64,000 bases of DNA from assembly GCA_022508565.1 (NCBI GenBank), contig JAFLUY010000008.1:9325-73324 (forward strand). The letters are read 5' to 3'. The translations under genes were made by a program, and so were the position numbers. Shown here in pieces: positions 4,671-53,488 of the stretch. The notes below the pieces were generated by a model. The model was not told where the DNA came from. It made no database searches and was given only the letters and a program-made list of their open reading frames with translations. The stretch comes from Erysipelotrichales bacterium. GTDB lineage: Bacteria > Bacillota_I > Bacilli_A > RF39 > UBA660. How positions within the stretch are numbered: position 1 is the stretch's first letter; the number at the start of each line of letters is the position of its first letter.

Positions 4671-5699
4671 ATGAATAATTCTTTTGGAAATATTTATAGG
4701 CTTACAACATTTGGAGAAAGTCATGGCCCTGCTATAGGAGGAATTATTGATGGGATTCCTTCTAATTTAGATATAAATATCGAAAAAATTCAATTAGCAT
4801 TAAATAAAAGAAAGCCAGGACAATCTTCACTATCAACTCCACGTAAAGAAAATGATATCGTAGAAATCCTTTCCGGTATTTACAAAAATAAAACATTAGG
4901 TTCCCCAATTGGATTTATCATTCGTAATCATGATATTAAGTCGAATGATTATGATGAAAACATATATCGTCCGTCTCATGGAGATTTTACTTATGAAGCA
5001 AAATATAAAATAAGAGATTATCGAGGAGGAGGTAGAGCGAGTGCCAGAGAAACCGCTTGTCGGATTGTTGCAGGAGAGATCGCAAAACAAATATTAAATC
5101 AAATAGCAAAAATAAATGTTTATACTTGTATTTCTCAAATCGGAAATATTAAAATAAATGAAAATTCTGATAATGAAATATTTAAAAAAGAAATAGAAGA
5201 CGAAATATTAAAGGTTAAAAAAACAGGAGATAGTATTGGAGGTAAAATTTCATGTATTATTGATTGTCCTGTTGGTCTTGGCGAACCAGTATATAATAAA
5301 TTACAAAGTGAATTATCTTCAGCAATGTTTTCTATTCCTGGAGTCAAAGGTTTTGAATATGGGTTAGGATTCGATTTTTGTAATAAAAAGGGATCTGAAG
5401 TAAATGATGAATTTTATTCAGATGGAATTAATATATTTACTAAATCAAATAATTCAGGAGGAATACAAGGAGGTATAAGTAATGGGCAACCGATATATTT
5501 TAATGTGGCATTTAAACCTACTCCTTCGATTTCTATAGAACAATCAACAATTGATAAAGATTTAAATAATATACATACTAAAATTAAAGGAAGACATGAT
5601 CCTTGTATCGTACCTAGAGCTCTTTATGTAGTAGAAGCAATGACCTATATAGTTATGCTCGACCAAATTATGATGAATCGATCAAAATCATTTTATTAA
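4671..5699 (+). CDS. aroC: chorismate synthase
   Basis: FGESHG, RPSHGD, GGGRASARETACR and GGISNG motifs. 342 aa is typical for AroC. Confidence 0.9.
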   Translation: MNNSFGNIYRLTTFGESHGPAIGGIIDGIPSNLDINIEKIQLALNKRKPGQSSLSTPRKENDIVEILSGIYKNKTLGSPIGFIIRNHDIKSNDYDENIYRPSHGDFTYEAKYKIRDYRGGGRASARETACRIVAGEIAKQILNQIAKINVYTCISQIGNIKINENSDNEIFKKEIEDEILKVKKTGDSIGGKISCIIDCPVGLGEPVYNKLQSELSSAMFSIPGVKGFEYGLGFDFCNKKGSEVNDEFYSDGINIFTKSNNSGGIQGGISNGQPIYFNVAFKPTPSISIEQSTIDKDLNNIHTKIKGRHDPCIVPRALYVVEAMTYIVMLDQIMMNRSKSFY

Positions 5700-5727
5700 A
5701 AAGAAATTAATTAAAATACAAAATAAT

Positions 5728-6138
5728 ATGAGAAAGAAAACATACTTAGACACTCGTTTGGTACATGTTTACCAAAATGATAAAATAACAGTTGCTAAAT
5801 GTCACTGCTATATTAATCTCGATCAACTACCTGTAGATAGAGTATCTCTACAAGGAGTTATTTTAAAATATTTTCCAATGATTGATTTTAATGGAGAATT
5901 TGATGTAGTAGGAAAATCACGGCGTAATGCCGAAGACGAATTTGATACTAATATTGGTTTATATCTAGCAGAATCTAAAGCTCAACAAAAAGCTTATGAT
6001 ATTGCAAATAAATTCTACGCTAAGATTAAAACAATTATTTTAGATAGTTTAAATGAAGTAGAACTTTTAGAACGAAATACAAAATCTTGTAAAGAACATT
6101 GTAGAGAACATATTGTTGAATTGGGAAAAATTAATTAA
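5728..6138 (+). CDS. hypothetical protein
   Basis: 136-aa ORF, last gene of the plus-strand block. Confidence 0.55.
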   Translation: MRKKTYLDTRLVHVYQNDKITVAKCHCYINLDQLPVDRVSLQGVILKYFPMIDFNGEFDVVGKSRRNAEDEFDTNIGLYLAESKAQQKAYDIANKFYAKIKTIILDSLNEVELLERNTKSCKEHCREHIVELGKIN

Positions 6139-6250
6139 AAATATCAAATACGTGACCCCTAAGAGCGATTATTTTTTGTGTAATATATTTTATTATTTTA
6201 ATAATTAATCTCTAATAGGGGCTATCTATGTAATTGTGGGAAGTACCTAA

Positions 6251-6290
6251 AATAAAAAGAGTAGATGATTATCATCTACTCTTTCAGTTA
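6251..6290. terminator. bidirectional terminator between convergent genes
   Basis: Perfect 13-bp stem aaagagtagatga (6256-6268) / tcatctactcttt (6272-6284) with a 3-nt loop. An A-run lies 5' and a T-run 3'. Confidence 0.7.
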
Positions 6291-6309
6291 TTATAAAAAT
6301 TATAAAATA

Positions 6310-7581
6310 TTAATCTTCTAATAAAGAAAGCTCTTTTGCAATACCATTGAGCATTGCGATTTTTACAGGATCATTTTTATATTCTTCTGCAAGCATAGCA
6401 ATTTTCTCACGACGAGAAGCTATTTTTGCTTTTTTAGAAACTTCTAATTGCTCTTTAATAGATTCGTAAGAATTAGGATCTACTCTTTTTGCGTCTTCGT
6501 TAATTCGATTTTCATAGATCGAAGAAAGATTAAGATTAGTAACTTTCTTGATATTTGCTAAAGCTTCATTCATATATTCAAAATTAGTTGAAGAAGTTCC
6601 ACATTGAGCAGATTTATACACAGTAACATTTACATTATCTTTTGCTTCAATAATAGAAAGAACATCACCAGTAGAAGTTTCGAGAACTTTAGCAGTATCG
6701 ATTTCACAAATATTTTCCATAGCTTCGTAAACTTCACCAATAGAATTTACAGTATTAAGGAAAATAGTTTTTTCATTACCAATAAGAGTTCTAGCAAAAA
6801 CATCTGCATATTCTTTGAATCCTGCTACTGATTCGAAAGTTTGTTTGAAATTACCTGTTTCAAAAGTAATAAGATTTTCAGAAATAGTAAAATGCATGGC
6901 TTTACCATATATTCCATGATTATAAGTATATTCAAGATTTTCTTCTACTTTCTTGAAATTAGGAAGAAGTGAATTGATTCGATTGAATTTCATATCATCA
7001 CAAACTGCTTCTTCTACAACATCATTAGCAAATTTAAAGGTCTTACCTAAGATTGAGAAATAAGTATTTCCTTCATCAATATGTAAATAAGTTACAGGAT
7101 TAGTAAGGGAATAATTTGGAGCATAAGTTTCTTCTACAACATTCGTACGATAAACTTCTTTACAGATTGATCTGAATTCAGGAATATATTGAAGATTTTT
7201 AAGGGCTCCAGCTTTAATATATTGAACAACTTCATTTTCTTTCATTTCTAAAAGTTTTTCAACTTGTCCAACTCCCATCTTAGCAATATAATTATATTGT
7301 GCATTGTTAGAATTAATAGATTCACAAGCACTAGAAAGTTTCCAAGAAATACGATTTTCATTTACATACGTCAATACAGATTCTAAAATAGACATAATAC
7401 CTGTATCGAAAGTGAATTTATTCGCTTCTCTTATGAAACCATTTACTAAACTATAAGATACATCATTTCCAAAAACGTATGCTTTATAGTTCTTTAAAAA
7501 ATTCTTACCTGATTCTGTTACGGCTTCTTGAGAGTTTAATTTTTCACCGAAATTCAGGTTACTAATCAACTTTAGGTTCAT
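6310..7581 (-). CDS. hypothetical protein (possibly abundant; function unrecognised)
   Basis: 423-aa ORF with a helical, charged C-terminus. It is preceded by a 2.4-copy tandem promoter/hairpin-like repeat. Confidence 0.7.
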   Translation of the reverse strand: MNLKLISNLNFGEKLNSQEAVTESGKNFLKNYKAYVFGNDVSYSLVNGFIREANKFTFDTGIMSILESVLTYVNENRISWKLSSACESINSNNAQYNYIAKMGVGQVEKLLEMKENEVVQYIKAGALKNLQYIPEFRSICKEVYRTNVVEETYAPNYSLTNPVTYLHIDEGNTYFSILGKTFKFANDVVEEAVCDDMKFNRINSLLPNFKKVEENLEYTYNHGIYGKAMHFTISENLITFETGNFKQTFESVAGFKEYADVFARTLIGNEKTIFLNTVNSIGEVYEAMENICEIDTAKVLETSTGDVLSIIEAKDNVNVTVYKSAQCGTSSTNFEYMNEALANIKKVTNLNLSSIYENRINEDAKRVDPNSYESIKEQLEVSKKAKIASRREKIAMLAEEYKNDPVKIAMLNGIAKELSLLED

Positions 7582-19643: not shown

Positions 19644-20726
19644 ATGACAGATCAGGAACTAATAAAAAATATTCAAAAACATAAGAAAATACTTTGGGAA
19701 AAACATTTAACAAAAGAAGAATTAATCTATTTAGAAAATAGATTTGAAAAATTTAACTCATATGCAGAGTCTTATTATAGAATATTATATAAAATAGAAG
19801 AAATGCCAAAATGTCCAGTATGTAAAAAAACATTAAAATTTATTTCATTAGGCAGAGGCTATGTAAATTTCTGTTCTCATAAATGCGCAGCAAAACATAA
19901 TCAAGAGCATTATAGAGAAATTTGTTTAAAAAGATATGGAATTGATCATCCATTTAAAAGTAAAGAACTACAAGAAAAAATTCATTCGAAAGAAATGTCT
20001 GAATATCATAAAAAGAAGTCATTGGAAAAATGGGGTACTGAACATCCGATGCAATCTGAAAAATATAAAAAATATTTTAAAAAATGTATTGAGAAAAAAT
20101 ACGGAAATGGAGTAACTAATGTTTGGCAGGCTGAAGAAGTTAAAAAGAAATTAAAAAATACATGGTTAGAAAAATATGGGACATCCGTCCCTAGTAAATC
20201 AGAAGAAATAAAAGAAAAAATTAAACAAACAAATTTAGAAAGATACGGAGTAAGTTGCACATTGCAAATTCCTGAAATTAAAAGTCATACTAATACTCCA
20301 GAAGCTCAAAGAAAAATTCATGAATCTAAGAAAAGGAATGGTAGCTATGGATATTCTAAAAATGAGCTTGAAATTTTTAATAAATTAAAAGAAAAATTTC
20401 CAAAAATTATTTTTCAATATTTAGATATTAATAGATATCCATTTAAATGTGATTTTTATATTCCTGAATTAGATTTATTTATTGAATACCAAGGATATTG
20501 GACGCATGGACCTAAACCATATAATGATAATGATGAAGATTGCCTCAAATTTGTACAAAAATTAAATAATAAATATTTAGAAACTAATAAAAAATGTTAT
20601 TTAGATGCTGTTGAATCATATACTATAGGTGACGTAAATAAAAGAAAAGTAGCCCAAGAAAATAACTTGAACTACTTAGAATTTTTTAATATGAATGATT
20701 TTTATTATTGGTACAACAATCTTTAA
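19644..20726 (+). mobile_element. free-standing homing-endonuclease-like gene (Zn-finger + 5 x KYG repeats + Vsr/DUF559-like PD-(D/E)xK C-terminal domain)
   Basis: CPVCKK...FCSHKCA zinc-finger-like motif. Five tandem [KR][YW]G...QSxE...K repeats. The C-terminus SKNELEIFNKL...CDFYIPELDLFIEYQGYWTHG has a D...E-x-Q/K nuclease-like core. Its stop codon overlaps the stop of the convergent rimK-like gene. Confidence 0.45.
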
Positions 20727-22228
20727 AACATCTCTCCTTTAAGCATATCTTTTCTAGTAGGATTTATAATATATCCCATTTTAGACATCAAGTCACGATT
20801 TATAAGTACTGGAGTAGATTTCTTTCTGTTATCTACTAATGCAAATTCTGCATTTTTAAAACGTCTTGTACCAATTTTAATTTCATCAATCAATACAGTA
20901 TGGCGTTCTTCGCGTACTTGGCCAACCATTGGATTAGAAGATCCATGGCGTTTAAAAATATATTTTTCTCCATTAATTGTAGCCTCAATTTTATCTCCTT
21001 TTAATTCTACTTTATCACAACCAAGTGTACTTGATTTTGAGCCATTGCCGGTATCAAATTTAGCTTCTAAATCAAATTGTTTGTCTTCTATAAAGAATGT
21101 CATTTCTTCTCGGTATCCAATAGATTTAGGTTGCAATACTAATTCAGAAATATCATTAATCGCTTCTAAAAGAATTCCCATAAAATTTTCTCCGATGACT
21201 TCTGAAATACCATCTGTGCCAGGACTAGAATTCCATTCAAGCACTACATTGTCTCCTATTTCTGGATTTGAACCTTTTTTAAGAGGCATAATATCGACGG
21301 CACACCAAGGCATATTTGAAATTCTAGCAACTTTTAGTGCGATTTCTTCCTGTTCTTTTGTAAGTTCTACTTTTTCTGCGGAAGCTCCTAATGAAACATT
21401 TGATCTAAAATCTCCAGAAAGCTTCACCCTTTTCATACAAGCCAATATTTTTTGTTCGGTTCGATTAGTCAATACATGTACACGGATGTCTCCTCCATCT
21501 GCTTCTTCCTTCTTTTGCAAAAGTAATTCTAATTCCTCGTTGACTGCAAACATCGCTTGAAGCATCGCAAGAATGTTTTTATTGTTACACATAAATACTC
21601 CGGTACCTCCGTGTCCATCTAAAAGCTTTACAACATATTCTTGTTCTTTATTGTCTTCAGACCAATTATCATATATCATTTTTAATTTTTCTGATAAAGA
21701 TTCCATTCCTTTTTCAATATCGTCTTTTCCAAGAAGAGTAAATCTAGGTTGAGGAATTTCATATCGTTGCATCAATACAGCTGATTGATATTTGTTAGAA
21801 GCTCTTTTAGCAGATTGAATAGGATTAATCACAAATAATCCCCATTCTTGTAATTCTTTAATACATTCACAACACATTTCAGAATCTTGTGCTCCTAATC
21901 TAGCAATAACAATCGTATCTACATTAGATTCATCTTTAATCTTAATAGATTCTTTCTTATCCCAAATTTTAATCTCATTATTATTTGCTTCGTATGTAAC
22001 TTCTTCTGCCACAAATACTTTTAAAGCAACATGAGTATCTTTCAATATTTCTTTAAGATTTTCTAAAGTTTTATTTTTTTTGGGATCTCTTTCATTTGTA
22101 AAAAATAAGATTGTCGAAAAGAAATATTTATCATGAGAGTCTTTTGATCTATTTTTCATTTCTTGTTTTTCGAAAAGAACTTTAGACATCTCAGTTTGGT
22201 CTATTAAAAAATCACTAAAACGTTTCAT
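20723..22228 (-). CDS. rimK: RimK-type ATP-grasp (alpha-L-glutamate) ligase fused to a C-terminal RimB/PF05618-like retropepsin-type protease domain
   Basis: VVKLLDGHGGTGVF, GGDIRVHV, GDFRSNVSLGA and WNSSPG match E. coli RimK blocks (from memory). The C-terminal EAKFDTGNGSKSSTL...ALVDNRKKSTPVLINRDLM...IINP matches the AK-DTGA..SS...DR....L-GR pattern of the 'ATP-dependent zinc protease' domain. Confidence 0.75.
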   Translation of the reverse strand: MKRFSDFLIDQTEMSKVLFEKQEMKNRSKDSHDKYFFSTILFFTNERDPKKNKTLENLKEILKDTHVALKVFVAEEVTYEANNNEIKIWDKKESIKIKDESNVDTIVIARLGAQDSEMCCECIKELQEWGLFVINPIQSAKRASNKYQSAVLMQRYEIPQPRFTLLGKDDIEKGMESLSEKLKMIYDNWSEDNKEQEYVVKLLDGHGGTGVFMCNNKNILAMLQAMFAVNEELELLLQKKEEADGGDIRVHVLTNRTEQKILACMKRVKLSGDFRSNVSLGASAEKVELTKEQEEIALKVARISNMPWCAVDIMPLKKGSNPEIGDNVVLEWNSSPGTDGISEVIGENFMGILLEAINDISELVLQPKSIGYREEMTFFIEDKQFDLEAKFDTGNGSKSSTLGCDKVELKGDKIEATINGEKYIFKRHGSSNPMVGQVREERHTVLIDEIKIGTRRFKNAEFALVDNRKKSTPVLINRDLMSKMGYIINPTRKDMLKGEMF

Positions 22229-23601: not shown

Positions 23602-24738
23602 ATGGAAAAAATAAATGTTTTTGATAAAACAAAAAATTTTTATAAAGTAGGTTGCAATTTTGATTTGGAATTAATTGATAAAATTGCGGAATTGAATGAA
23701 AAATACAAAGATAAAGCTAGGGTAGTTGAATTTTTTGGAAGTGATGCTACACATGAAGAGTTGACGGCAAGACCTGGTTGGAGACTTCCTGATATTTCAA
23801 AAGAGTATTTTGAAGAATATATTAAAAAAGCTAAAGAAAAGGGAATATTATTTAATTATACAATGAATTCTATTCAACCTTATGGTAGTAAGAATGAATT
23901 GTTGGCACATAAAAAAGAAGTACAAGAATTTGTTAAATGGCTAGAAAATATTGGAGTATACAGGATTACTATTGCTAATCCTATAATGGCTTTAATAATT
24001 AGAGAAGTATCAAATATCGAATTAGAAATGTCGTGTATTGGACATGTCGATACTGTTACCCAACTTAGATTCTATCATGAAGAATTAGGAATAAATAAAT
24101 TTTGTGTTTCGATTCTTAAAAATAGAAATAAGAAATGGCTAAAGAATGCCGCAAAATATGCTAATGAAAATAATATTATATTAGAACTTTTAGCAAATGA
24201 ATTTTGTTCAGTTGCCGGAATAGGTAAAAATGGCAGTCCATACGCAACCCATTGTGCTTTTAGAGATTCTTGTTATCTTTGTCATGCGATGAATCGTACA
24301 AAAGAAGATTCGATGTCATATAATAATTATCCGATGAATTATTGTATGTCAGCTAGAAATTCAACTCCTGAAGCTTGGCTTAGAACTCGTTGGATTCGTC
24401 CAGAAGATTTACATTATTATAATGAAATTGGAATAAATTATTTTAAAGTTAGTGGTAGAACCGGCACAACAGAATATCTAATAAGAATTATTGAAGCTTA
24501 TATGTCTGAAAATTTTGATGCTAATCTACTTGAACTTTGGAAACCTCTTGAAACTATATATAACGGAGTAAAAGAATCTTCTCATAAACATACAGTGAAT
24601 ATTCCAAATAAAAAACTCGATAAATTTTTGGATAAATGGTTTATAGGAGAAGGATGGGAATGTGCTGATGAACTTTGCGGAACTACTTGTACATATTGTG
24701 AAGAATTTGCAAAGTCTCATAATCTCTACGAGAATTGA
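23602..24738 (+). CDS. peptidase-U32-family-like protein (family of the O2-independent, prephenate-dependent hydroxylases RlhA/TrhP/UbiU-UbiV)
   Basis: The block order resembles a U32 TIM barrel: ARPGWRLPDISKEYFEEYIKKAKEKGILFNYTMNS, ENIGVYRITIANPIMALIIRE, IELEMSCIGHV, ELGINKFCVSILKNR, ILELLANEFCS...THCAFRDSCYLCH (4 Cys). A second Cys cluster, CADELCGTTCTYC, lies at the C-terminus. The PROSITE U32 signature is only partly matched. Confidence 0.5.
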   Translation: MEKINVFDKTKNFYKVGCNFDLELIDKIAELNEKYKDKARVVEFFGSDATHEELTARPGWRLPDISKEYFEEYIKKAKEKGILFNYTMNSIQPYGSKNELLAHKKEVQEFVKWLENIGVYRITIANPIMALIIREVSNIELEMSCIGHVDTVTQLRFYHEELGINKFCVSILKNRNKKWLKNAAKYANENNIILELLANEFCSVAGIGKNGSPYATHCAFRDSCYLCHAMNRTKEDSMSYNNYPMNYCMSARNSTPEAWLRTRWIRPEDLHYYNEIGINYFKVSGRTGTTEYLIRIIEAYMSENFDANLLELWKPLETIYNGVKESSHKHTVNIPNKKLDKFLDKWFIGEGWECADELCGTTCTYCEEFAKSHNLYEN

Positions 24739-24740
24739 TA

Positions 24741-24782
24741 TATTGCGAAGAATTTGCTAAAACCAATTTATTATATGAATGA
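24741..24782 (+). pseudogene. orphan duplicate of the 3' end of the U32-like gene (ghost C-terminus)
   Basis: tat tgc gaa gaa ttt gct aaa acc aat tta tta tat gaa tga encodes YCEEFAKTNLLYE*. The real gene ends YCEEFAKSHNLYEN*. Differences are mostly synonymous, and the copy is out of frame 2 nt after the real stop. Confidence 0.6.
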
Positions 24783-24802
24783 AAAATAAAAAATATTTTT
24801 AA

Positions 24803-25227: not shown

Positions 25228-25794
25228 ATGGAAATTATACAAAATGATTTTTTCGAAGGAGTAATTGTTTTAGAGCCCGAAATACATGAAGATGAGAGAG
25301 GATATTTTTATGAAACTTGGCACAATTACCAATACAATACATATTTAGATCATCTTTATGGTAATTTTATACAAGATAATGAATCTTGCTCTAAAAAAGG
25401 AGTTTTTAGAGGTTTGCATTGGCAATTGCCTCCATTTGATCAAGCAAAATTAGTAAGGTGTGTTAAAGGGCATATTATTTCTTTTGTCGTTGATATGAGA
25501 TTGAATTCTGAAAGATGCGGACAGTATAAATATTTTGATTTAAGCGAAAAAAATAAACGTCAACTTTTTATACCAAGAGGTTTTGCTCATGGTTATTTAT
25601 CATTAGAAGATGATACCATAGTAAATTGTAAAGTTGATAATTATTATAATGATTATTGTGAAAGGTCTTTTAATGTAGCCGATTTACATTTAGAAAATCT
25701 TTTAAATAAATTTAATTTTAATATGGTTTTATCAGAAAAAGATGCCGAGGCTCCGATGATTAAAGATTTAGAAGAAACAGACTTTTTCTATTAA
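25228..25794 (+). CDS. rfbC: dTDP-4-dehydrorhamnose 3,5-epimerase-like cupin
   Basis: HEDERGYFYE, FRGLHWQ..P..QAKLVRCVKG.I...VVDMR and LFIPRGFAHGY motifs. Confidence 0.85.
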   Translation: MEIIQNDFFEGVIVLEPEIHEDERGYFYETWHNYQYNTYLDHLYGNFIQDNESCSKKGVFRGLHWQLPPFDQAKLVRCVKGHIISFVVDMRLNSERCGQYKYFDLSEKNKRQLFIPRGFAHGYLSLEDDTIVNCKVDNYYNDYCERSFNVADLHLENLLNKFNFNMVLSEKDAEAPMIKDLEETDFFY

Positions 25795-26921: not shown

Positions 26922-27206
26922 ATGGAAGAAATTAATATTTTAAGGAATAAGATCGATATATGTGATAAAAAAATTGTTGACTTAATATTCGACCGTCTAG
27001 AATTGTGTAAACAAATCGGGAAAATTAAAAAAGAAAACAATTTAAATGTTATTGATAATAATCGTTGGCAAAATATTATTGATAAAATAATAAAATTAGC
27101 AAAAAATAAAAGTAATAAAGAAACAGAGGAAGATTATGTCTATCTTATAATTAATATTTATAATTTGATACACGAAACAAGCTGTAATCTACAAAAGAAT
27201 GAATAA
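26922..27206 (+). CDS. chorismate mutase (AroQ class, CM_2-type)
   Basis: LRNKIDICDKKIVDLIFDRLELCKQIGKIKKEN...VIDNNRW matches the LR..ID..D..I..L...R......IG..K......D..R pattern. 94 aa, stand-alone. Confidence 0.8.
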   Translation: MEEINILRNKIDICDKKIVDLIFDRLELCKQIGKIKKENNLNVIDNNRWQNIIDKIIKLAKNKSNKETEEDYVYLIINIYNLIHETSCNLQKNE

Positions 27207-27777
27207 TAAATTAATTGTTATTGATGGTCAAGATCGGACAGGTAAAGACACTTTATTGAATGATATTATTAAGAATCATCCAGAAAATTATATAATATAT
27301 TATCAAACTACCTGTGATGATGCAAAAGTTGATTATCGAGATAAAGTAGCATTTACAAAACATCAGAAAAAACTTATTGAAAAAGTTTTTAACGATATTA
27401 AAAAATTAAAAGAAGAAAATCCAAATAAAAATATTGTGTGTATGAGACTTTGGATTTCTGATGAAGTTTATAGTGATATGTTTGATAGAGAGCATGTCAC
27501 CATTCAATATAAAGAGGAATTTGAAAAAATTTTTGGAAAAGAAAATATTTTATATTTTGTATTTCTTTGGAAATCTTTTAATGATTTTGTTTCCCGAATG
27601 CAAAATATAAAGGATAATCATGGACTAAATGAATATTCTGAAGAGGAATTCCAAAAAGTAAAAAAATTATTTGTGAAATATTCTGAAAAATATAGTACTA
27701 AAATTTACTATATTGAAAATGAAACTAGTCAAAGACAATTGTTTAATTATATAAATACTTATTTACATGATGAATAA
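27199..27777 (+). CDS. P-loop (d)NMP kinase-like protein (T4 gp1 / thymidylate-kinase-like)
   Basis: The P-loop IVIDGQDRTGKDTLLNDI resembles T4 gp1 FLSGVKRSGKDTTADFI (from memory) and Tmk EG.DG.GK.T. It overlaps the chorismate mutase gene by 8 nt. Confidence 0.5.
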   Translation: MNNKLIVIDGQDRTGKDTLLNDIIKNHPENYIIYYQTTCDDAKVDYRDKVAFTKHQKKLIEKVFNDIKKLKEENPNKNIVCMRLWISDEVYSDMFDREHVTIQYKEEFEKIFGKENILYFVFLWKSFNDFVSRMQNIKDNHGLNEYSEEEFQKVKKLFVKYSEKYSTKIYYIENETSQRQLFNYINTYLHDE

Positions 27778-28930
27778 TAAAATTAAATATGGTAGTGAAG
27801 AAGATTTTTATAATATGATTAAGAATAAAAAGATTCTTTATATACCTATTGTTTCTTCAATAAATAGAGAAACAGGAGAATATAATCTCGATAGTGATGG
27901 AAATATCAATCGATTGGTTACAGCATTTAGTATAAATGATTCTTTTGAATGTTTGGATCTTGTATTGCCTAAAAAACATAGTAAAGAAACTAAAATCTTA
28001 GATGCATTTAAAGAAAATAATGAAAATATTAATTTCATATTTTCAGATTTTTTTGGAATACATGCAGGAGAGCAACGTTCAAATATGTTTATCATTACAA
28101 ATTTAGTTAATGAATTAGAAAGAAATAAGAGTTTTGATTCGTACGATTATGTGATTTTAGATTCTCAATATCTTTTGATTTATTTAAATAAATACAATTA
28201 TGTTGATCGAAATAAATTGATATTTTGGAATTATCTTTGTTCAACAAAAAAATATCAAAGATCTTTTACTGCTCCATTTGTAGATATTACTAAAGATGCA
28301 ATCAATATTGCAAAATATGTAATTGTGACATCTCCAGATATTTTAGAATTCACTGCCGATGAAAAGATGGATAGGGCAGATGATTCTTTATTTTATATTC
28401 CTAAATTTGTAGATCGAAAATTAGACATATTTTCTAAATACGAGGAAGATCAGGAAGTCTATGATATATTAGATTCATATATAGAAAGCAAGACTATCCC
28501 TTTTTATCTTCCTTTCAGATTAACTGATGAAGCTTATAAAATGGATTTAGTTATTTCTGATTTTATTTTGCCATATCAAAGCATAGCGGAAATTAACGGA
28601 TATGATATTTCGTTAATTTATTCAGATCCAAATAATTCAGGTGAAATGGAAAATTTTATTGAAAAATATCCCGAATTAGATAAAGATAATATTATTTTGC
28701 AAAAAGTATCACCAGCAAGAGATACTTTCTATACAATTATTGATCATCCTATTGGAGTAAATATCCCTTATTTTGAAGACATCGATTTTGCTAACCATGC
28801 CGCTATATGGGAATTTAAAGATTCTAATGCAAATATTTGGGTATTACCTAAATATGATGGAATGTTGATGCCGTATTATGAAAAAACAGACACATCTATA
28901 TTTAAATCTTATGAAATTTTAAAAAACTAA
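27767..28930 (+). CDS. hypothetical protein (two Rossmann-like halves; a GT-B-type glycosyltransferase is possible but unproven)
   Basis: 387 aa, overlapping the kinase-like gene by 11 nt. Alternating beta-strand-like hydrophobic runs (ILYIPIV, YVILDS, YVIVTSPD, ISLIYSDP) are visible, but no diagnostic motif. Confidence 0.6.
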   Translation: MMNNKIKYGSEEDFYNMIKNKKILYIPIVSSINRETGEYNLDSDGNINRLVTAFSINDSFECLDLVLPKKHSKETKILDAFKENNENINFIFSDFFGIHAGEQRSNMFIITNLVNELERNKSFDSYDYVILDSQYLLIYLNKYNYVDRNKLIFWNYLCSTKKYQRSFTAPFVDITKDAINIAKYVIVTSPDILEFTADEKMDRADDSLFYIPKFVDRKLDIFSKYEEDQEVYDILDSYIESKTIPFYLPFRLTDEAYKMDLVISDFILPYQSIAEINGYDISLIYSDPNNSGEMENFIEKYPELDKDNIILQKVSPARDTFYTIIDHPIGVNIPYFEDIDFANHAAIWEFKDSNANIWVLPKYDGMLMPYYEKTDTSIFKSYEILKN

Positions 28931-32921: not shown

Positions 32922-33096
32922 GCAATTTATATTAAATCAAGAAGAAATTGTTGCTGTTAAAGACGCTATAATTGAATATATCTTTAAACATCAATGGTTT
33001 GGGAATCCTGAAACAACTAACATTCAGGGTAATTTAGAAATTTTGGATAAATTAGACAAACGAATAGATGAATTTTTATGCGAAAATATGGATTAA
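32902..33096 (+). CDS. hypothetical protein
   Basis: 64-aa ORF that overlaps both neighbours. Confidence 0.45.
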   Translation: MKNRMSEQFILNQEEIVAVKDAIIEYIFKHQWFGNPETTNIQGNLEILDKLDKRIDEFLCENMD

Positions 33097-33800
33097 TTGG
33101 ATATCCTCTTAGACATTCATGGTCGAGAGGATATTTCACAAATAAATTTAAAGAAAATAATATTGATGCTTTCTATGATAATTTAGAAATTGAAAATTTA
33201 GAAGGAATAAAAGATTTATTAGTTTCAAATAATTATAAAGGTTTTAATGTGACAATTCCATATAAAGAAAAAATTTTGGGATATGTAGATGGAATAGATG
33301 ATAAAGTAAATACAATTAAAGCATGTAATTGTATAAAAATTATAGATGGAATCTTTATAGGTACTAATACAGACATTATTGGATTTAAAGAATCATATAA
33401 AGATATATTAAATCCAAATAAAAAGGCATTAATATTAGGTACCGGAGGAGCAAGCAAATCTGTTGCTTTTGTTTTAGACGAATTAGGAATTAAATATAAA
33501 TACGTCTCTCGTTCATATAAGGACAGGGCATTAGAGTATAAAGATTTAAATAAAGAAATCATTAACTCTCATAAAATAATTATTAATACGACTCCTTTAG
33601 GAACTTTTCCAAATATCAATCAGTTTCCGGATATTCCTTATGATTTCATAACACCTGAGCATGTTTGTATAGATCTGATTTATAATCCTGAGAAAACATT
33701 ATTTTTGCAAAAATGCGAAAAACAAGGAGCTACTATAAGAAATGGATATGATATGCTAATTAAGCAAGCTGAAGCTTCTTGGGATTTTTGGAATTCTTAA
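33078..33800 (+). CDS. aroE: shikimate 5-dehydrogenase
   Basis: YGLIGYPLRHSWS, GFNVTIPYKE, NTDIIGF and GTGGASKSV (Rossmann) motifs. 240 aa. Confidence 0.88.
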   Translation: MRKYGLIGYPLRHSWSRGYFTNKFKENNIDAFYDNLEIENLEGIKDLLVSNNYKGFNVTIPYKEKILGYVDGIDDKVNTIKACNCIKIIDGIFIGTNTDIIGFKESYKDILNPNKKALILGTGGASKSVAFVLDELGIKYKYVSRSYKDRALEYKDLNKEIINSHKIIINTTPLGTFPNINQFPDIPYDFITPEHVCIDLIYNPEKTLFLQKCEKQGATIRNGYDMLIKQAEASWDFWNS

Positions 33801-47022: not shown

Positions 47023-48498
47023 ATGAAAGTGATCAAACGAGATGGTACTATCCAGGAATTTGACATCAAGAAACCTATTGAGGCTTTCAAGAAGCCTTTT
47101 ATAAATGGTTTGCAGAGAGAAGTTCCGGAAGGCTTACTTGAAAAATTTGAAATTGAACTCGAGAAGTTCATAAACAAACAAAAAGAAGAAGTTAATATTG
47201 AAGAAATTCAAGACTTCATTAGAGATTTCTTAATTAAGAAAAATCAATATGAAGCCGCTGAAAACTTTATTCTTTATCGTGAAAAACGAAATGAATATCG
47301 CGAAAAGAATACCAAGCTTCATAAGAATATTATTACAAAACTTTATGCAAAGAATATTGAAAATTCTAATGCAAATATGGATGAAGCCTCATTTGGCGGT
47401 AGAGTAGGTTCAGCAGCTTCAGAAGTTTGTAAAGATGAAGCATTAAAATTAATGTCAAGAAAGTTTAGAAAAAATCACGAAAATAATGAAATCTATGTTC
47501 ATGATTTAGATGCATTTTGCGACGGGCGCCATAACTGTTTGTCATATCCGATAGATAAATCCCTTAATGAAGGATTTTCTACTAGACAAACTGATGTTCG
47601 TGAAGCTAACTCTATATTGACTGCTTTGCAATTAGTTGCCGTACAATTTCAGTGTCAATCACTAGAGCAATTCGGCGGGGTTGCGGCAACACATATAGAT
47701 TGGTCAATGGTTCCATTTGTCAGAAAAAGCTTTATGAAACATTTTAAAGATGGGTTAGAATGGATTGGCTTATTCAATTGGAAAAAAGAAAAAATAGATA
47801 AATATATTAATGAAATTATTCCAGGAATAGAAAATAAGGATTCGGAAAATCCAATTCGTAGAACTTTAGCTATAGAAAAGAGTAAATATATTTTAAAGCA
47901 ACCCTGGTATAAATTATTTAAGAAATATAGATTACATAGAGCATATAAATATGCATTAAAGAAAACTAAAAGAGATACTTATCAAGGAGTAGAAGGACTT
48001 TACCATAATTTAAATACACTTCAATCAAGATCAGGATCGATGCTCCCGTTTAGTTCGATAAATTATGGTACATGTACTTTACCGGAAGGCCAAATGGTTA
48101 CTGATGCTATTCTTGATGTGACTATAAAAGGTCTTGGAGAACATGGTGTAACATCAATATTCCCTTGTGGAATTTTTCAATATAAAAAGGGCGTTAATGA
48201 TAAACCTAGAACACCTAATTATCATCTTTTTAGAAAAGCTCTTAAATCAACAGCTAAGAGGATTTATCCAAATTATGCAAACTGTGACTGGAGTAATCAG
48301 AAATCTTGGAAAGAATATGATTTGAAAATTCGTACAGAAGTTCTTAATGAATTGAATGAAGATGATACCGAAAAACTTATTAGTAAAGTCAAGCAAGATC
48401 CAGAATTTGCATTAGATCATTTTAGATTAATATATGATTATTATGGATTACATGTTATTGAAGAAGAACTCCCGATCGAGTTATTTTCAACCATGGGT
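47023..48498 (+). CDS. nrdD: anaerobic ribonucleoside-triphosphate reductase, exon 1 (ATP-cone + N-terminal catalytic part)
   Basis: ATP-cone start MKVIKRDGTIQEFDIKK. The class III RNR body follows. The exon ends ...ELFSTMG at a U (48498). Confidence 0.8.
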
Positions 48499-48768
48499 AA
48501 GCGAAATACTACAGCCCATGTAAAATTCCGTGAACCAAGCTTATTGGGTGTGGCTTAATAAAGCTGCTAACGGTTAGGTCCTAATAGGTGATGCTAAGGA
48601 TGAGACCGTGCTAAGATTTAAAGATTCATTCTTGAATAAAGTGTATCGACTATCCCTGATGAATGTAAGGGAGTAGGATTGGAGATAAGCACCAATTCCA
48701 AGCGCGGAACATTTATTTAATATAAATGAAGATATAGTCAGTACAAATAGTAATATTTGATTAATATG
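48499..48768 (+). ncRNA. group I self-splicing intron, ORF-less (about 270 nt)
   Basis: The 5' splice site follows U48498 and the intron ends with G48768. P1 pairs exon CAUGGGU (48492-48498) with internal guide GCCCAUG (48514-48520), placing a U-G wobble at the splice site. A long-range 7-bp helix joins 48526-48532 and 48703-48709. Hairpins occur at 48653-48672 and 48710-48728. The segment is visibly G+C-richer than its flanks. Splicing restores TMG|CRTANGG. Confidence 0.7.
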
Positions 48769-49827
48769 TGTAGAACAGCGAATGGTGGAGATATTTGGTT
48801 TAAAAATTCATTTGAAAAGAATTTAAAAGCTTGGATAAATGATGAGACTCTTTATGACGATATTATATCAGGTTGTCAAAAGGATGGTCGTGGAAATATT
48901 TGTCCAGTAACAATCATTCTTCCGACATTAGCAATGGAAGCTAAAGAATATATTGAGAAGAAAACCGAAAACCCAACTAAAGAAGAATATAAGAAAGCTT
49001 TTATTGATTTATTGACAAAGAAAATTCATGAAGCTAAAGATATGCTTATCGAAAGATTCGAACATATAGCTTCCCAATCTGCCGCATCGGCTAAATTTAT
49101 GTATGGAAATAAAACAATGTCAGGTTATGTTCCAGAAGAAGGAATACAATCAGCACTTCGTCATGGTACTATAGTTATCGGTAAAATCGGATTAGCGGAA
49201 GCATTAATTATTCTTATTGGAAAGGACCATTCAATTAAAGAAGGGATGGAATTTGCTAAAGAAATTGAAACTCTTTATAGAGATCTCTGTGCAAAATTTA
49301 AAGAAGAATACAAATTTAATTTTGGAAATTATAATACTCCAGCAGAATCACTTTGTCATACTTCATTAAAGAAATTTAGAGATAAATATGGTATCATTCC
49401 AAATGTTTCCGATAAAGAATATTTCACTAATTCTATTCATATTCCTGTACATAATAATAATATAAATATCTTTGAAAAAATCAATAAAGAAGCAGAACTT
49501 ACCGGATATTCTAGTGCTGGTTGCATAACTTATGTCGAGATGGATAGTTCAGCGGTAAATAATATTGATGCTATGGAAAAAATAGTTACATACGCAATGG
49601 ATAAAGATATCCCATATTTTGCTTTAAATTTCGATTTAAACAGATGTGCAAAATGTAATTATCAAGGAGGAGACATTAATGATGTTTGTCCTAAATGTGG
49701 AAGTCAGGATATTTTAGAACTCAAACGAGTAACAGGCTATTTGAGTACAACTAAAAAACATTTTAATCCTGGTAAAATTGATGAAGTAGATCATCGCTGT
49801 AAACATGAATCTAAAACAATTTTATAA
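48769..49827 (+). CDS. nrdD: anaerobic ribonucleoside-triphosphate reductase, exon 2 (C-terminal Zn-ribbon and glycyl-radical domain)
   Basis: CAKCNY...CPKCGS Zn ribbon and the glycyl radical motif KRVTGYLST. The ORF-track TTG start at 48757 is an artefact of the intron. Confidence 0.8.
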   Translation, partial: CRTANGGDIWFKNSFEKNLKAWINDETLYDDIISGCQKDGRGNICPVTIILPTLAMEAKEYIEKKTENPTKEEYKKAFIDLLTKKIHEAKDMLIERFEHIASQSAASAKFMYGNKTMSGYVPEEGIQSALRHGTIVIGKIGLAEALIILIGKDHSIKEGMEFAKEIETLYRDLCAKFKEEYKFNFGNYNTPAESLCHTSLKKFRDKYGIIPNVSDKEYFTNSIHIPVHNNNINIFEKINKEAELTGYSSAGCITYVEMDSSAVNNIDAMEKIVTYAMDKDIPYFALNFDLNRCAKCNYQGGDINDVCPKCGSQDILELKRVTGYLSTTKKHFNPGKIDEVDHRCKHESKTIL

Positions 49828-49863
49828 ATATTTATTTTTAATTACAAATATATTTTCAATAAT

Positions 49864-50364
49864 ATGAAGAGTTTAATCGATATAATAAATGAAGCTAAAT
49901 TTAAAACAATTTCCTCAATAAAAGCCGGAGATACAATTTATGCTATTGTGAGTGATTATGATAATAAATATTCTTATAATCGTTTAAAAAGAGATATGAA
50001 GCCATATAAATTTACTATTACTGAAGTAAGAAAAGCAAGAGATGGTAAAGGTTTATATGCGAAAGTAGAGCAAAATAAATTTAATATTGATAGAATTTAT
50101 TTTACTGATGATGAAATAAGAGATTTTGCATGTAATGGCACAGGTATAATGGATATGGAATATGATGAAGTTTATACGATGTTCTGTGCAAAATCAATAG
50201 ATGAATTACAAGAACTTATGGATAGTGAAGTTGGCGAAGAAATTGGTAATAAATTAAATAAAATATCTAAACTTGAAAATGATAAACAACAAATAGATAA
50301 GAAAATTGAACAAATAAAAGCAGAAATTGATGAACTTAAATCTTCAGCACAATTAGAAAAATAG
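49864..50364 (+). CDS. hypothetical protein with CTS-like N-terminus (MKSLIDIINE) and C-terminal coiled coil
   Basis: 166-aa ORF. Confidence 0.6.
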   Translation: MKSLIDIINEAKFKTISSIKAGDTIYAIVSDYDNKYSYNRLKRDMKPYKFTITEVRKARDGKGLYAKVEQNKFNIDRIYFTDDEIRDFACNGTGIMDMEYDEVYTMFCAKSIDELQELMDSEVGEEIGNKLNKISKLENDKQQIDKKIEQIKAEIDELKSSAQLEK

Positions 50365-50391
50365 AAATATTATTTATATATATTTTACTGA

Positions 50392-50423
50392 AATGCTAGA
50401 TAAAATATATCTAGCATTTTTGT
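50392..50423 (+). terminator. rho-independent terminator
   Basis: Perfect 11-bp stem aatgctagata (50392-50402) / tatctagcatt (50408-50418), then tttg. Confidence 0.7.
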
Positions 50424-50476
50424 TATTTTTAGATATGAAACACGTTATAAAATATTCTATATTTTAATTAGTTTTA

Positions 50477-51019
50477 ATGTTAGAAAATATGAAAATTGCT
50501 AGTATAACTACTTGTGATATAAATAATGGTCCAGGGATTCGAATGACTATTTGGATTTCTGGATGTTCTCATAATTGTCCTGGATGTCATAATCCAGAAC
50601 TCCAAGATTATGACTTCGGTAAATATAAACTATTGTCTCCTGAAGTTTTTGAAAAAATTGAAAATGAATTAAATAAATCTTATATAGACGGAATAACATT
50701 TTCCGGAGGAGATCCTTTAGACCAAAATAATCGTTCATTAAGAGAATTAAAAACTTTTTTATATTATCTTAAAAAACATTGGCCGAATAAAAAAATATGG
50801 GTTTATACTGGCGGAACTTATGAAATTTTAAATAAAATTGCAATTATAAATCAAGTTTTAGATTATGTTGATGTTTTAGTAGATGGATTATTTATACCAG
50901 AAAAAAGAGACATAACATTACCATTTCGTGGTAGCACCAATCAAAGGATTATTGATATCCAAGAAAGTAAAAAACAAAACAAAACAATTATATTAGAAGA
51001 TAAACTTTTTAGAACTTAA
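50477..51019 (+). CDS. nrdG: anaerobic ribonucleotide reductase activating protein (radical SAM)
   Basis: DINNGPGIR...ISGCSHNCPGCHN matches NrdG's C-x3-C-x2-C cluster context. GGDPL motif. 180 aa. Confidence 0.85.
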   Translation: MLENMKIASITTCDINNGPGIRMTIWISGCSHNCPGCHNPELQDYDFGKYKLLSPEVFEKIENELNKSYIDGITFSGGDPLDQNNRSLRELKTFLYYLKKHWPNKKIWVYTGGTYEILNKIAIINQVLDYVDVLVDGLFIPEKRDITLPFRGSTNQRIIDIQESKKQNKTIILEDKLFRT

Positions 51020-51319: not shown

Positions 51320-51539
51320 TAAAATCTATCAAATACAATGTAGATATGAATATTGGAGTATCGAACATGGGAAGATCTGGACTAAATGGTTTAATGTATA
51401 TGGCGAAGTATATCATAACAAAGATCTTATTGAATCTAGATTGGAAGATATAAAAAATAAAGTAACTTCAATAGATAAAATTACTAAACTTAAACACGAA
51501 TATCAAATAGTAGAAAATATAAAAGAAAATGAAAATTGA
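51312..51539 (+). CDS. hypothetical protein (start moved to the internal ATG)
   Basis: [15 protein letters not shown].... The ATG at 51312 overlaps the upstream stop (ATGAATAA). The ORF-track start at 51273 would overlap by 47 nt. Confidence 0.45.
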
Positions 51540-52599
51540 TAATTCAAAAGATTATTATAAAATTTTAGGGATATCAGAAGATGCTTCTGAACAAGAAATT
51601 AAAAAGGCTTACAGAAAACTATCATTAAAATATCATCCAGATAAACAAATCGACAAATCTGAAGAAGAGAAAAAAGAAGCTCATGAAAAATTTACAGAAA
51701 TAAATGAAGCTAATGATATTTTAGGAGATACAAATAAAAGATATCAATATGATCAATTAAGAAAGTTCGGAGGATTCGGTGGATTTGGAGGATTTGGAGG
51801 ATTCAATCCTTTTGGAGATTTCTTTACAAACGTCAATAAAAAAAGAAAACCAACATATCCCATAGGACAACAAATTAATCTTAGAATTAGATTAACTATT
51901 GAAGATTTATATAATTATGATAAACCAAAAATTGTAACTTATAATCGTCCTGTAAGATGTACTGAGTGTAATGGAGTTGGAGGAACTGGGCAGGAAACTT
52001 GTGGTCATTGTCATGGTACTGGAATGATTACAGAAATCCGTCAACAAGGTATAATGACTATACAAAATTCTCGTCCATGCCAATATTGTAATGGTACTGG
52101 ATTTATAATAAAAGAATCTTGTAAAAGTTGTTCCGGAAATGGTTTAAAAAATGAGGTTGCCGAATTTGATGTAAATACAGCTGTACCTAGACAATATCTT
52201 TTCCAAAATGATTCTGTAATAAATATTTCCGAACTAGGAGGAGAATCGAGAAGTCCAGAGGTACCTAATGGAGATATCTTATTATATATTTCTCATGATT
52301 TCGATACTGATGAATATGAAATAGATGAATTCGGAAATATTTATCAAAAACTTTCGGTTCCATATTATGAATGCATATTAGGAAATGATAATTATACATT
52401 TGTTGCATGTGATAGAGGATATCATATAATTAAATTACCAAAGTACTCAAGAACGGGATATAAAATTGAATGCCAAGAAATGCATGGTGCTATAGAAGGA
52501 TCTAAATATTATATCTATATAAATGTTGATATGCCAAAAGAAATTAATAAGGATGAAGAAAAATATTTAGAAGAGATTAAAAAATTGCATCAAAAATAA
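51529..52599 (+). CDS. dnaJ: DnaJ (Hsp40) co-chaperone, type I
   Basis: J domain DYYKILG...[14 protein letters not shown] region (GGF)x5. Four CxxCxGxG zinc motifs ([32 protein letters not shown]). Confidence 0.9.
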
Positions 52600-52607
52600 T
52601 TCTTAAG

Positions 52608-52636
52608 TGCTTGGTAAAAATACCAAGCATTTTTTA
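52608..52636 (+). terminator. rho-independent terminator
   Basis: Stem tgcttggta (52608-52616) / taccaagca (52621-52629), then ttttttat. Confidence 0.7.
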
Positions 52637-52699
52637 TACTCGAATTTTGAAATTTCATCTCAAATTTCTATGTTATTTATATAATTTAATCAACTTAAA

Positions 52700-53488
52700 A
52701 TGAAGGATATACAACCAATATTTGATCCTACAAAAGGATATCCGTTTATTATTGCTGGTCCTTGTTCAGCCGAAACAGAAATGCAAGTTATGCAAACGGC
52801 TGAACAATTAAAAGAAAATGGATTCGAATATTTTCGGGCAGGAGTTTGGAAACCTCGAACTAGGCCAGGAGGATTTGAAGGAAACGGTAAAAAGGCTTTA
52901 GAATGGCTTAAAAAAGCGAAAAAAGAATTAGACATAAAAATTTGTACAGAAGTGGCAAATCAAGACCAAACAAAAATGGTACTTGATTATGGAATCGATA
53001 TCATTTGGATTGGTGCTAGGACGACTACTTCACCTTTTGCTGTACAAGAAATTGCCGATACTTTATATAAAGAAGAAAGCAGAATTCCGGTACTTGTGAA
53101 AAATCCTCCTTGTCCAGATTTAGAATTGTGGATAGGAGCAATAGAAAGATTTTACAATGCCGGAATAAGAAAATTGGGAGCTATTCACCGAGGTTTTTTA
53201 GAATGGCCGAAAAGTGTATATCGGAATTCTCCTATTTGGGCAATTCCGACAGAATTTTCAAAGAGAATTCCAGAAATAACTATGATTCATGATCCTTCGC
53301 ATATTAGTGGAGATAAAGAGTTGATTGAATATCTTTCTAAAAAAGCGATTAATGGAAATGTATTTGATGGACTTATGATAGAATCTCATTATAAACCTGA
53401 ATTAGCAATTACAGATGCTAGACAACAAATTACTCCAGAAGAATTATATAAAATAATATCAAATATTAAAGAAAATTATATTTTATAA
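52700..53488 (+). CDS. 3-deoxy-7-phosphoheptulonate (DAHP) synthase, type I-beta-like
   Basis: PFIIAGPCSAE, FRAGVWKPRTRPGGFEG.G..AL.WL and IHDPSHISG motifs. 262 aa. Confidence 0.8.
   Translation: MKDIQPIFDPTKGYPFIIAGPCSAETEMQVMQTAEQLKENGFEYFRAGVWKPRTRPGGFEGNGKKALEWLKKAKKELDIKICTEVANQDQTKMVLDYGIDIIWIGARTTTSPFAVQEIADTLYKEESRIPVLVKNPPCPDLELWIGAIERFYNAGIRKLGAIHRGFLEWPKSVYRNSPIWAIPTEFSKRIPEITMIHDPSHISGDKELIEYLSKKAINGNVFDGLMIESHYKPELAITDARQQITPEELYKIISNIKENYIL

Follow-up and report, generated by a model that had tools for sequence, protein, structure and literature searches.

Phage-borne shikimate-pathway genes as a candidate prephenate supply for a putative U32-family DNA pyrimidine hydroxylase

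Known members of the peptidase U32 family hydroxylate pyrimidine C5 or aromatic rings without O2, with the use of prephenate. TrhP (ho5U34, 5-hydroxyuridine, in tRNA) and RlhA (ho5C2501, 5-hydroxycytidine, in 23S rRNA) act at pyrimidine C5 and need prephenate (PMC6599085, PMC5727448). For UbiU/V, 18O labelling identified prephenate as the stoichiometric oxygen donor, phenylpyruvate being the proposed product; the substrates of most U32 subfamilies are not established (PMC10990095). Here we describe a 64-kb stretch of phage DNA (contig JAFLUY010000008.1; ‘the window’ below) in which a gene for a divergent U32 protein is followed by a gene for chorismate mutase (CM), and which also encodes DAHP synthase (DAHPS), shikimate dehydrogenase (AroE) and chorismate synthase (AroC). 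We consider it rather probable that these four aro genes supply prephenate as the stoichiometric oxygen donor for an anaerobic C5 hydroxylation of pyrimidines of the phage DNA.

A second closely related system is the gp45–gp55 gene cluster of phage RB69, which leads to DNA with arabinosylated 5-hydroxycytosine (ara-5hoC) and has counterparts in phages DLP3 and HY126 (Straboviridae; PMC13326640). In this cluster the hydroxylase is the flavin-bound ThyA homolog gp48, which takes its oxygen from O2, and gp46:47 is the proposed arabinosyltransferase 1; the U32 protein gp50 is labelled ‘sugar or heterocycle reductase’ in Table 1, the small open reading frame (ORF) gp49 is not discussed, and the words U32, prephenate and chorismate are absent from the paper (PMC13326640). 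The window resembles the cluster in having homologs of gp50, gp45 and gp46:47, all three grouped at 23602-28930. It differs in having no ThyA-type synthase of 5-hydroxydeoxycytidine monophosphate (5hodCMP) and no arabinose-nucleotide genes, with a gene for RmlC instead, and in the presence of CM in the module (a DAHPS-CM fusion in relatives), the addition of AroE and AroC, and a host that appears to be an anaerobic bacterium of the gut or rumen. The genes in question are the following.

4671..5699, + strand: chorismate synthase AroC, step 7, 342 amino acids (aa) (PF01264, 419.7 bits)
23602..24738, + strand: peptidase-U32 family protein, 378 aa, putative hydroxylase, ortholog of RB69 gp50 (PF01136, 34.6 bits; gathering score 22.4)
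25228..25794, + strand: dTDP-4-dehydrorhamnose 3,5-epimerase RmlC (PF00908, 179.6 bits)
26922..27206, + strand: stand-alone AroQ chorismate mutase (CM), 94 aa (PF01817 CM_2, 68 bits; gathering score 27)
27199..27777, + strand: thymidylate-kinase-like nucleotide kinase, 192 aa, RB69 gp45 homolog (TIGR00041 dTMP kinase, E 1e-6)
27767..28930, + strand: putative DNA glycosyltransferase, 387 aa, RB69 gp46:47 homolog (family hidden Markov model (HMM), 8e-38)
33078..33800, + strand: shikimate dehydrogenase AroE, step 4, 240 aa (PF08501, 72.9 bits; TIGR00507, 173 bits)
52700..53488, + strand: DAHP synthase, type I-beta, step 1, 262 aa (PF00793, 124.8 bits; NF006421, 164 bits; TIGR01361, 153 bits)

The window (27% GC) belongs to a metagenomic contig of 377,382 bp (ENA ERZ27293317 k141_1147735), where it takes up roughly 160,326-224,325 in reversed orientation, and of which the window and its flanks, ~74 kb of 377 kb in total, were in view. 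It is phage sequence: among its products are a gp32-like protein, NrdG and a split NrdD, a GIY-YIG nuclease, DnaJ, and giant proteins of structural or leucine-rich-repeat type, and a T4 gp13-like protein follows just beyond the right end, in 4.6 kb of added flank. A megablast search with 25 kb of the window found no near relative in INPHARED (50,697 phage records). The aro genes are phage-borne, as a first-pass annotation made from the letters alone had proposed, with phage genes on both sides and with phage-like GC content at third codon positions (GC3).

The four aro genes are real and intact. The ORFs exist with exactly the boundaries listed above and belong to the families named in the first-pass annotation (Pfam, NCBIfam), all Pfam matches being above the gathering scores. 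AroC exceeds two NCBIfam equivalog cut-offs (415 versus 321 and 408 versus 212 bits). For AroE and DAHPS the best matches are the right NCBIfam equivalogs, yet the scores are below the cut-offs (173 versus 200 bits for AroE with TIGR00507); the match of DAHPS to the model of 3-deoxy-D-manno-octulosonate 8-phosphate (KDO8P) synthase has only 56 bits, against the 164 and 153 bits for type I-beta DAHPS. Disrupted catalytic residues had been named as what would speak against function, and alignment shows intact sites in all four proteins. DAHPS, aligned to Pyrococcus furiosus 1ZCO, retains the GPC cysteine, KPRT, DPSH, IESH and the Asp, and its metal and phosphoenolpyruvate ligands are invariant among phage homologs. 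AroE, aligned to 1NVT and 3DON, retains the lysine of NVTIPYK, the aspartate of NTD and the GxGGA motif that binds NADP. The AroC motifs GESHG, RxSARET, GGxQGG and KGRHDPC are present in invariant columns. CM, aligned to 1ECM, retains the equivalents of E. coli CM R11, R28, K39, D48, R51, S84 and Q88, with a single deviation, W49 at the position of E52. We considered W49 as an active-site lesion and rejected this possibility: of 79 Bacteroidota DAHPS-CM sequences, 56 have Y and 20 have W at the E52 position (76/79), so W/Y is the normal state of these CM domains. For members of this clade, CM activity has been shown by experiment (PMC8408635).

A Pfam scan of all window ORFs of at least 100 aa gave no match to aroB, aroD/aroQ (dehydroquinase), aroK, aroA, pheA, tyrA or an aminotransferase. 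The absence of prephenate dehydratase, prephenate dehydrogenase and aromatic aminotransferase from the 64 kb, as reported in the first-pass annotation, is thus confirmed, and the route ends at prephenate in everything visible: the flanks added no further aro, phe or tyr gene (~74 kb with the window), the 4.6-kb right flank having no aro genes. Three ORFs were considered as divergent forms of the missing enzymes and rejected, 27199-27777 as shikimate kinase by its gp45 homology, 27767-28930 as AroB/AroA by its gp46:47 homology, and 6310-7581 as AroB/AroA for lack of any family signal.

A likely consumer of prephenate, overlooked in that annotation together with the overlap of CM with the kinase/glycosyltransferase genes, is the product of the U32 gene. 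Since the U32 gene adjoins, a pathway that ends at prephenate acquires a candidate purpose. We assign to the U32 protein, by homology, synteny and host range, a putative prephenate-dependent, O2-independent hydroxylase activity. It shares the Pfam family and the fold, the U32 TIM barrel, of TrhP, RlhA and UbiU-UbiV and is cysteine-rich, as Fe-S U32 proteins are. The AlphaFold2 model (17 homologs; pLDDT 85.6, pTM 0.89) has as its top PDB fold match in Foldseek the sole solved U32 structure, 5D88 (E 1e-7); PDB sequence searches, whether with the protein or with the profile of its family, yielded no meaningful match. The family has 11 cysteines that are invariant or nearly so; E195, C202, C218, C224 and C248 are invariant, C227 is nearly invariant, and an extra C-terminal CX4CX3CX2C sets the protein apart from TrhP, RlhA and UbiU-UbiV. 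Further differences are that it is encoded by a virus, that it is very divergent, and that DNA or a deoxynucleotide is proposed as its substrate. There is a physical coupling of its gene with prephenate synthesis; we know of no cellular U32 gene that shares an operon with a CM or DAHPS gene of its own.

The proposed route would run as follows. DAHPS, a bare catalytic core free of the inhibitory CM domain, would open the pathway, and AroE and AroC would reinforce two later steps, while aroB, aroD/aroQ, aroK and aroA would come from the host or from the rest of the phage genome. The 94-aa CM would convert chorismate to prephenate, with which the U32 protein, a putative Fe-S protein, would hydroxylate pyrimidine C5 without O2. 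The U32 substrate would most likely be dCMP or cytosine in phage DNA, yielding 5-hydroxycytosine with release of phenylpyruvate and CO2. Processing and glycosylation of the hydroxylated base would then fall to the kinase of the gp45 type and the glycosyltransferase of the gp46:47 type, with hypermodified, restriction-resistant DNA as the result. The U32 route would in this way be the anaerobic counterpart of the flavin/O2-dependent ThyA-type 5hodCMP synthase of RB69 and DLP3.

The demand for prephenate would plausibly be large, one molecule being consumed per hydroxylation, with ~1.0e5 cytosines per 377-kb genome. In the host-type DAH7PS-CM, prephenate binding at the CM domain inhibits DAH7PS allosterically (PMC8408635). 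The window DAHPS has no CM or ACT regulatory domain; it resembles, as far as the alignment goes, the unregulated catalytic cores of the PDB and may escape prephenate feedback. A phage in need of much prephenate would gain from a DAHPS of its own because the host-type enzyme is inhibited by that product.

The kinase and the glycosyltransferase connect CM to DNA modification. CM is the first gene of the unit and lies 2.2 kb downstream of U32; it overlaps the kinase gene by 8 nt, and the kinase gene overlaps the glycosyltransferase gene by 11 nt. In profile comparisons the kinase matched the gp45-type family (hhalign probability 97.4%, E 1.5e-11; HMM match 5e-7) and the glycosyltransferase the gp46:47-type family (hhalign probability 97.7%, E 2.3e-12, over 277 columns); the latter has 35–39% identity to the same-module gene of jumbo relatives. 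RmlC is a possible contributor to the sugar donor, its membership in the module being tentative. It is found between U32 and CM in the window and in the 91%-identical relative L176, and it is not in the module of other relatives, which have arabinose-5-phosphate isomerase and AfhE-like genes there instead.

Two smaller features lie in the same interval. A 73-aa IF-1 homolog (24985-25206) is located between U32 and RmlC; it is present in L176 as well (PF01176) and not in more distant relatives. A terminator-like hairpin (26861-26888; a 12-bp stem followed by a T-run) ends 34 nt before the CM start, so that the CM-kinase-glycosyltransferase genes may be transcribed apart from the genes that run from U32 to a metallophosphoesterase, the number of terminator-like sites in the region being no higher than in shuffled sequence.

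We compared U32 homologs from large metagenomic contigs and 47 non-identical IMG/VR loci, 31 of them outside the T4-like group, with the U32-CM distance taken between longest-ORF boundaries. A CM gene was located within 10 kb of U32 in 26 of the 47 loci, and within ~400 bp in 22 of these. The following gene orders were seen.

L175 (U32 83% identical): U32, fused DAHPS-CM (365 aa), kinase, glycosyltransferase
L176 (91% identical): the window order, U32, small ORF, IF-1, RmlC, CM (94 aa), kinase
L007 and L012: U32, then a DAHPS-CM fusion that overlaps it
L009 and six relatives (contigs of 190-295 kb): U32, 107-aa CM (8-nt overlap), glycosyltransferase, AfhE/GlmU-like gene, kinase
L019-L022: glycosyltransferase, kinase, arabinose-5-phosphate isomerase, AfhE-like gene, DAHPS-CM, U32
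L047:8296-10100 (IMGVR_UViG_3300003432_000026): U32, DAHPS-like gene (E 9e-18 against the DAHPS of the window), flanked by DNA polymerase fragments; no CM detected

The window proteins can be aligned with both halves of the L007 fusion that stands beside U32, DAHPS with 49% and CM with 42% identity. All of the other viral DAHPS found in IMG/VR (19/19) are DAHPS-CM fusions, and eight of the 19 have U32 within 10 kb. Given the compact L175 operon and the fusion of DAHPS to CM in all 19, the ancestral module was compact, and the split of DAHPS with its move over 25 kb is a recent event in the window lineage. The jumbo relatives add to the gp50, gp45 and gp46:47 homologs an arabinose-5-phosphate isomerase and a bifunctional AfhE/GlmU-like enzyme (arabinose-5-phosphate isomerase and AfhE-like genes in L016-L025 and L064-L067), as in the ara-5hoC cluster. 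In L016, L018, L023 and L054 one ORF, located ~5.8 kb upstream of U32, combines a match to the gp45-type kinase with one to the gp46:47-type glycosyltransferase, a fusion that supports joint action of the two.

The linkage extends to cultured phages. The window U32 protein has 52–55% identity over 96–99% of its length to ‘peptidase U32’ proteins of 222 phage records, in which the ten commonest host genera are all Enterobacterales. The small ORF that separates U32 from the ThyA homolog in T4-like phages of enterobacteria encodes a CM_2 protein (38–50 bits in three representatives, gathering score 27). A U32-adjoining CM was detected by tblastn in at least 52 phage records, nearly all of Enterobacterales, among them phages of Klebsiella, Yersinia, Enterobacter, Edwardsiella, Erwinia and Providencia, Serratia phages LC53 and CHI14, and Shewanella phage Thanatos-1. 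A few GenBank records label the small ORF ‘chorismate mutase’ beside ‘U32 family peptidase’. The gene order of Escherichia phage moskry (DNA polymerase, arabinose-5-phosphate isomerase, GlmU-like, HAD-like, U32, small ORF, ThyA homolog, two hypothetical proteins, UvsX) is that of the RB69 gp45-gp55 cluster.

The distribution of the two hydroxylase types follows the oxygen relations of the hosts. Acinetobacter phage DLP3 has the same cluster with the HAD gene (gp81) abutting the ThyA homolog (gp80), and has neither U32 nor CM. Homologs of the ThyA-type hydroxylase were found in 374 phage records, 57 of Acinetobacter and 20 of Rhizobium; neither genus is among the ten commonest U32 host genera, the smallest of which has three records. 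The 31 loci outside the T4-like group, most of them low in GC and many on contigs of 100-295 kb, showed no ThyA-type hydroxylase within 10 kb of U32; the sole ThyA seen (L025) has canonical dTMP-synthase residues. In the hydroxylase genes seen, the pattern is as follows.

Phages of aerobic hosts: O2-dependent ThyA-type enzyme only
Phages of facultative anaerobes: ThyA-type enzyme, U32 and CM
Phages of anaerobes: U32 and CM or DAHPS-CM

The ThyA-type (O2) and U32 (anaerobic) hydroxylases of phages are in this respect like the pairs TrhO/TrhP and UbiHFI/UbiUV. The Bacteroidales-derived aro genes, together with the genes below, point to an anoxic host of the window phage, in which an O2-dependent hydroxylase cannot work.

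47023..51019, + strand: NrdD (split), an anaerobic ribonucleotide reductase, with the activase NrdG (PF13597, ATP-cone and Gly_radical; Fer4_12 and Radical_SAM), a marker of an anoxic lifestyle and here context only

For phages of anaerobes and facultative anaerobes in general, we see about even chances that U32 takes oxygen from prephenate to make 5-hydroxypyrimidine DNA, the cost being paid by a CM, a DAHPS-CM or the four aro genes of the phage itself.

The origin of the aro genes can be traced to Bacteroidota. The nearest cellular DAHPS are from Bacteroidales (52–60% identity, many from rumen and gut metagenome-assembled genomes (MAGs)), the nearest cellular AroE from Bacteroidota (50–57% identity, same length class), and AroC has 58% identity to Bacteroidaceae AroC. 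The gene for this 58%-identical AroC was suspected to lie on another phage, which was ruled out by its context, an ordinary Bacteroidaceae chromosome. The comparison with characterised Bacteroidota DAH7PS-CM (PniDAH7PS, PgiDAH7PS; PMC8408635, PMC12202928) shows that phage DAHPS and CM are 52–60% identical to this clade, that phage relatives keep the same fusion, and that the window CM has the Y/W of the clade at E52; in the window, unlike in the clade, DAHPS and CM are separate genes 25 kb apart. Because the GC3 of the four aro genes (12–19%) is like that of other phage genes, Bacteroidales having 40–50% GC, and because they are just 50–60% identical to the nearest Bacteroidota proteins, they fit the picture of old residents of the phage lineage. 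The first-pass annotation had read the dispersal of these genes among phage genes as a sign of long residence; the residence is borne out, whereas the scatter is not ancestral.

Copies of AroC and AroE with 78–81% identity occur on short contigs, therefore at least one sister phage has both genes too, and the same AroC context was found in an independent Logan assembly. Searches of phage records with AroC and DAHPS (tblastn) returned just contaminated-looking ‘phage’ records and one fecal contig, and an IMG/VR scan with the single AroC protein returned nothing. In IMG/VR, a dozen contigs filed as viral or giant-virus MAGs (L077-L087 and L089; ‘GVMAG’ and 59-70 kb contigs, ~25% GC) carry an AroC 45–48% identical to that of the window and are unrelated to the U32 phages.

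Several observations weigh against a prephenate-fed DNA hydroxylase. The PF01136 match takes in just the N-terminal part of the U32 domain, hhalign of the U32 profile versus the single sequences of E. coli TrhP and UbiU gave no significance, and the 4Fe-4S cysteine ligands cannot be put in a confident register with E162/C170/C177 of TrhP or with the ligands of UbiU. The hydroxylase activity of TrhP and RlhA themselves has never been directly reconstituted (PMC10990095). Outside the T4-like group 18 of the 31 loci have no CM within 10 kb of U32, at least one of these 18 contigs having a DAHPS-CM 137 kb from U32, and in RB69/moskry-type phages the ORF beside U32 is not recognisable as CM. To our knowledge, no phage U32 protein has any biochemistry behind it. 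The window has no match to the ThyA-type (D169N) 5hodCMP synthase at E up to 1 (family HMM) and no dCTPase, arabinose-5-phosphate isomerase or AfhE-like gene; it has no match to the HAD phosphatase of the UDP-arabinose set either. The base and the sugar of the window phage are accordingly not fixed by the gene content of the window. AroC and AroE were found only in the window lineage, none of the 15 loci of the alignment-based AroC scan of IMG/VR being on a U32-bearing contig, and the model gives no reason for adding precisely these two. Finally, the ~300 kb of the genome outside the view could hold pheA or tyrA.

A pheA or tyrA gene there would favour the explanation by amino-acid supply, in which the phage raises the flux to prephenate and the PheA, TyrA and aminotransferases of the host finish Phe and Tyr for virion proteins. 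The four genes are intact and of host (Bacteroidota) origin, the downstream enzymes are normal in hosts, a large virion and its proteins need amino acids, and the by-product phenylpyruvate of the hydroxylation model would feed Phe as well. We nevertheless find it unlikely: CM overlaps genes for a nucleotide kinase and a DNA glycosyltransferase and not amino-acid genes, the adjacency of U32 with CM or DAHPS-CM recurs across architectures and phage groups, pheA, tyrA and aminotransferase are missing from the window, and E. coli/Klebsiella phages keep CM only in the DNA-modification cluster though their hosts make ample Phe and Tyr. Hydroxylation of DNA is the most likely use of the prephenate, ahead of amino-acid synthesis. 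The suspicion that the aro genes are an artefact (contamination, a chimeric assembly or decaying functionless passengers) is raised by the metagenomic nature of the contig and by the sub-cut-off NCBIfam scores of AroE and DAHPS; it is very improbable in view of the AroC context in the independent Logan assembly, the phage genes on both sides, the phage-like and not Bacteroidales-like GC3, the intact catalytic residues and the 78–81% identical copies elsewhere.

Two other explanations give the U32 protein a different role. The only nucleic-acid substrates known for U32 proteins are RNA pyrimidines, at C5 (PMC6599085, PMC5727448), and the phage protein could be an RNA hydroxylase like TrhP/RlhA (ho5U34 in tRNA, ho5C in rRNA) that uses phage-made prephenate and reprograms translation in infection; the IF-1 homolog between U32 and CM would suit this, translation genes being common in jumbo phages. 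The IF-1 insertion is limited to the window lineage, however, the window has no CmoA, CmoB or TrmR-type enzymes and no tRNA genes, and the U32 neighbours in T4-like and jumbo phages are genes of the ara-5hoC type (glycosyltransferase, kinase, nucleoside-diphosphate sugar, ThyA-type); we give an RNA target the same low likelihood as amino-acid supply. A little less likely again is that U32 and CM serve a sugar or small-molecule branch, or make a prephenate-derived moiety that is put on DNA. The Table 1 label of gp50 and the lack of established substrates for most U32 subfamilies (PMC10990095) speak for a branch of this kind. Against it, DLP3 makes UDP-arabinofuranose and tri-arabinosyl-5hoC without U32 or CM (PMC13326640), characterised U32 chemistry is hydroxylation in every case, and the window combines U32, CM, a kinase and a glycosyltransferase with a lack of arabinose-nucleotide genes, which ties U32 to the base/glycosyltransferase side.

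If hydroxylation of DNA with prephenate is correct, DNA or a deoxynucleotide would for the first time be a substrate of the U32 hydroxylases, a virus would for the first time have taken over the shikimate pathway as a source of an organic oxygen donor, and gp50 with gp49 of the RB69-type cluster would form an anaerobic counterpart to the ThyA-type hydroxylase that needs O2. Prephenate-dependent hydroxylation (identified in 2024 for ubiquinone, inferred for RNA) would extend to DNA or deoxynucleotides, the shikimate pathway would become a target of viral metabolic reprogramming, and hydroxylated, glycosylated bases in phages of obligate gut and rumen anaerobes would be explained beyond the O2-dependent enzyme. 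The known phage auxiliary metabolic genes that boost precursors (nucleotides, queuosine precursor) are similar in that a partial host pathway is carried by the virus, the host fills the gaps and the product goes to virion DNA chemistry; they differ in that shikimate genes are nearly absent from cultured phages and that for an organic oxygen donor as end use no viral precedent was found in the literature searched. Full-text searches found no paper joining phages, U32, chorismate mutase/prephenate and DNA modification, the He et al. study of HY126 lying outside their coverage; the Thanatos paper does not mention the U32 and CM genes. A testable function is thus proposed for the U32 and small CM genes of a widespread hypermodification cluster, some of whose U32-CM carriers are in culture (LC53 and CHI14 of Serratia; phages of Klebsiella, Enterobacter and Yersinia). 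The proposal bears on the evasion of restriction and CRISPR by gut phages, and the enzyme pair might allow the in vitro reconstitution of U32 activity that the field still lacks.

Scans of the window for tRNA genes and for Rfam families at the gathering threshold gave no match, and a promoter scan did no better than on shuffled sequence. The nrdD gene is in two ORFs (47023-48558 and 48757-49827), and the interruption, 48473-48760, has in a local search a full-length match to the group I intron RF00028 (30.8 bits, E 6e-6), below the gathering score of 50. A group I intron is present in T4 nrdD too. Directly upstream of DAHPS, 51529-52599 encodes a DnaJ of full length, with its J, CXXCXGXG zinc and C-terminal domains; right after DAHPS, 53491-54994 encodes an 84-aa ORF, a DUF4406 protein and a LEM-3-like GIY-YIG nuclease. 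DUF4406 is a family with a nucleoside deoxyribosyltransferase-like fold and could have a link to the nucleotide pool. At the right end a BspA-type leucine-rich-repeat ORF (58661-64000, − strand; listed as 1518 aa) continues past the window, the called gene having 1848 aa; a T4 gp13-like neck protein comes after it in L174.

The surroundings of the U32 module are partly conserved as well. Upstream, in divergent orientation, lies a gene for a RimK-type ATP-grasp ligase of 501 aa (20723-22228, − strand); in all jumbo relatives examined (L007, L009, L175, L176) the same place is taken by one such gene or by two, an NlpC/P60 fusion among them. An OmpA-domain protein of 385 aa (29021-30178) is conserved in the relatives, with 35–38% identity, some kb downstream from the module.

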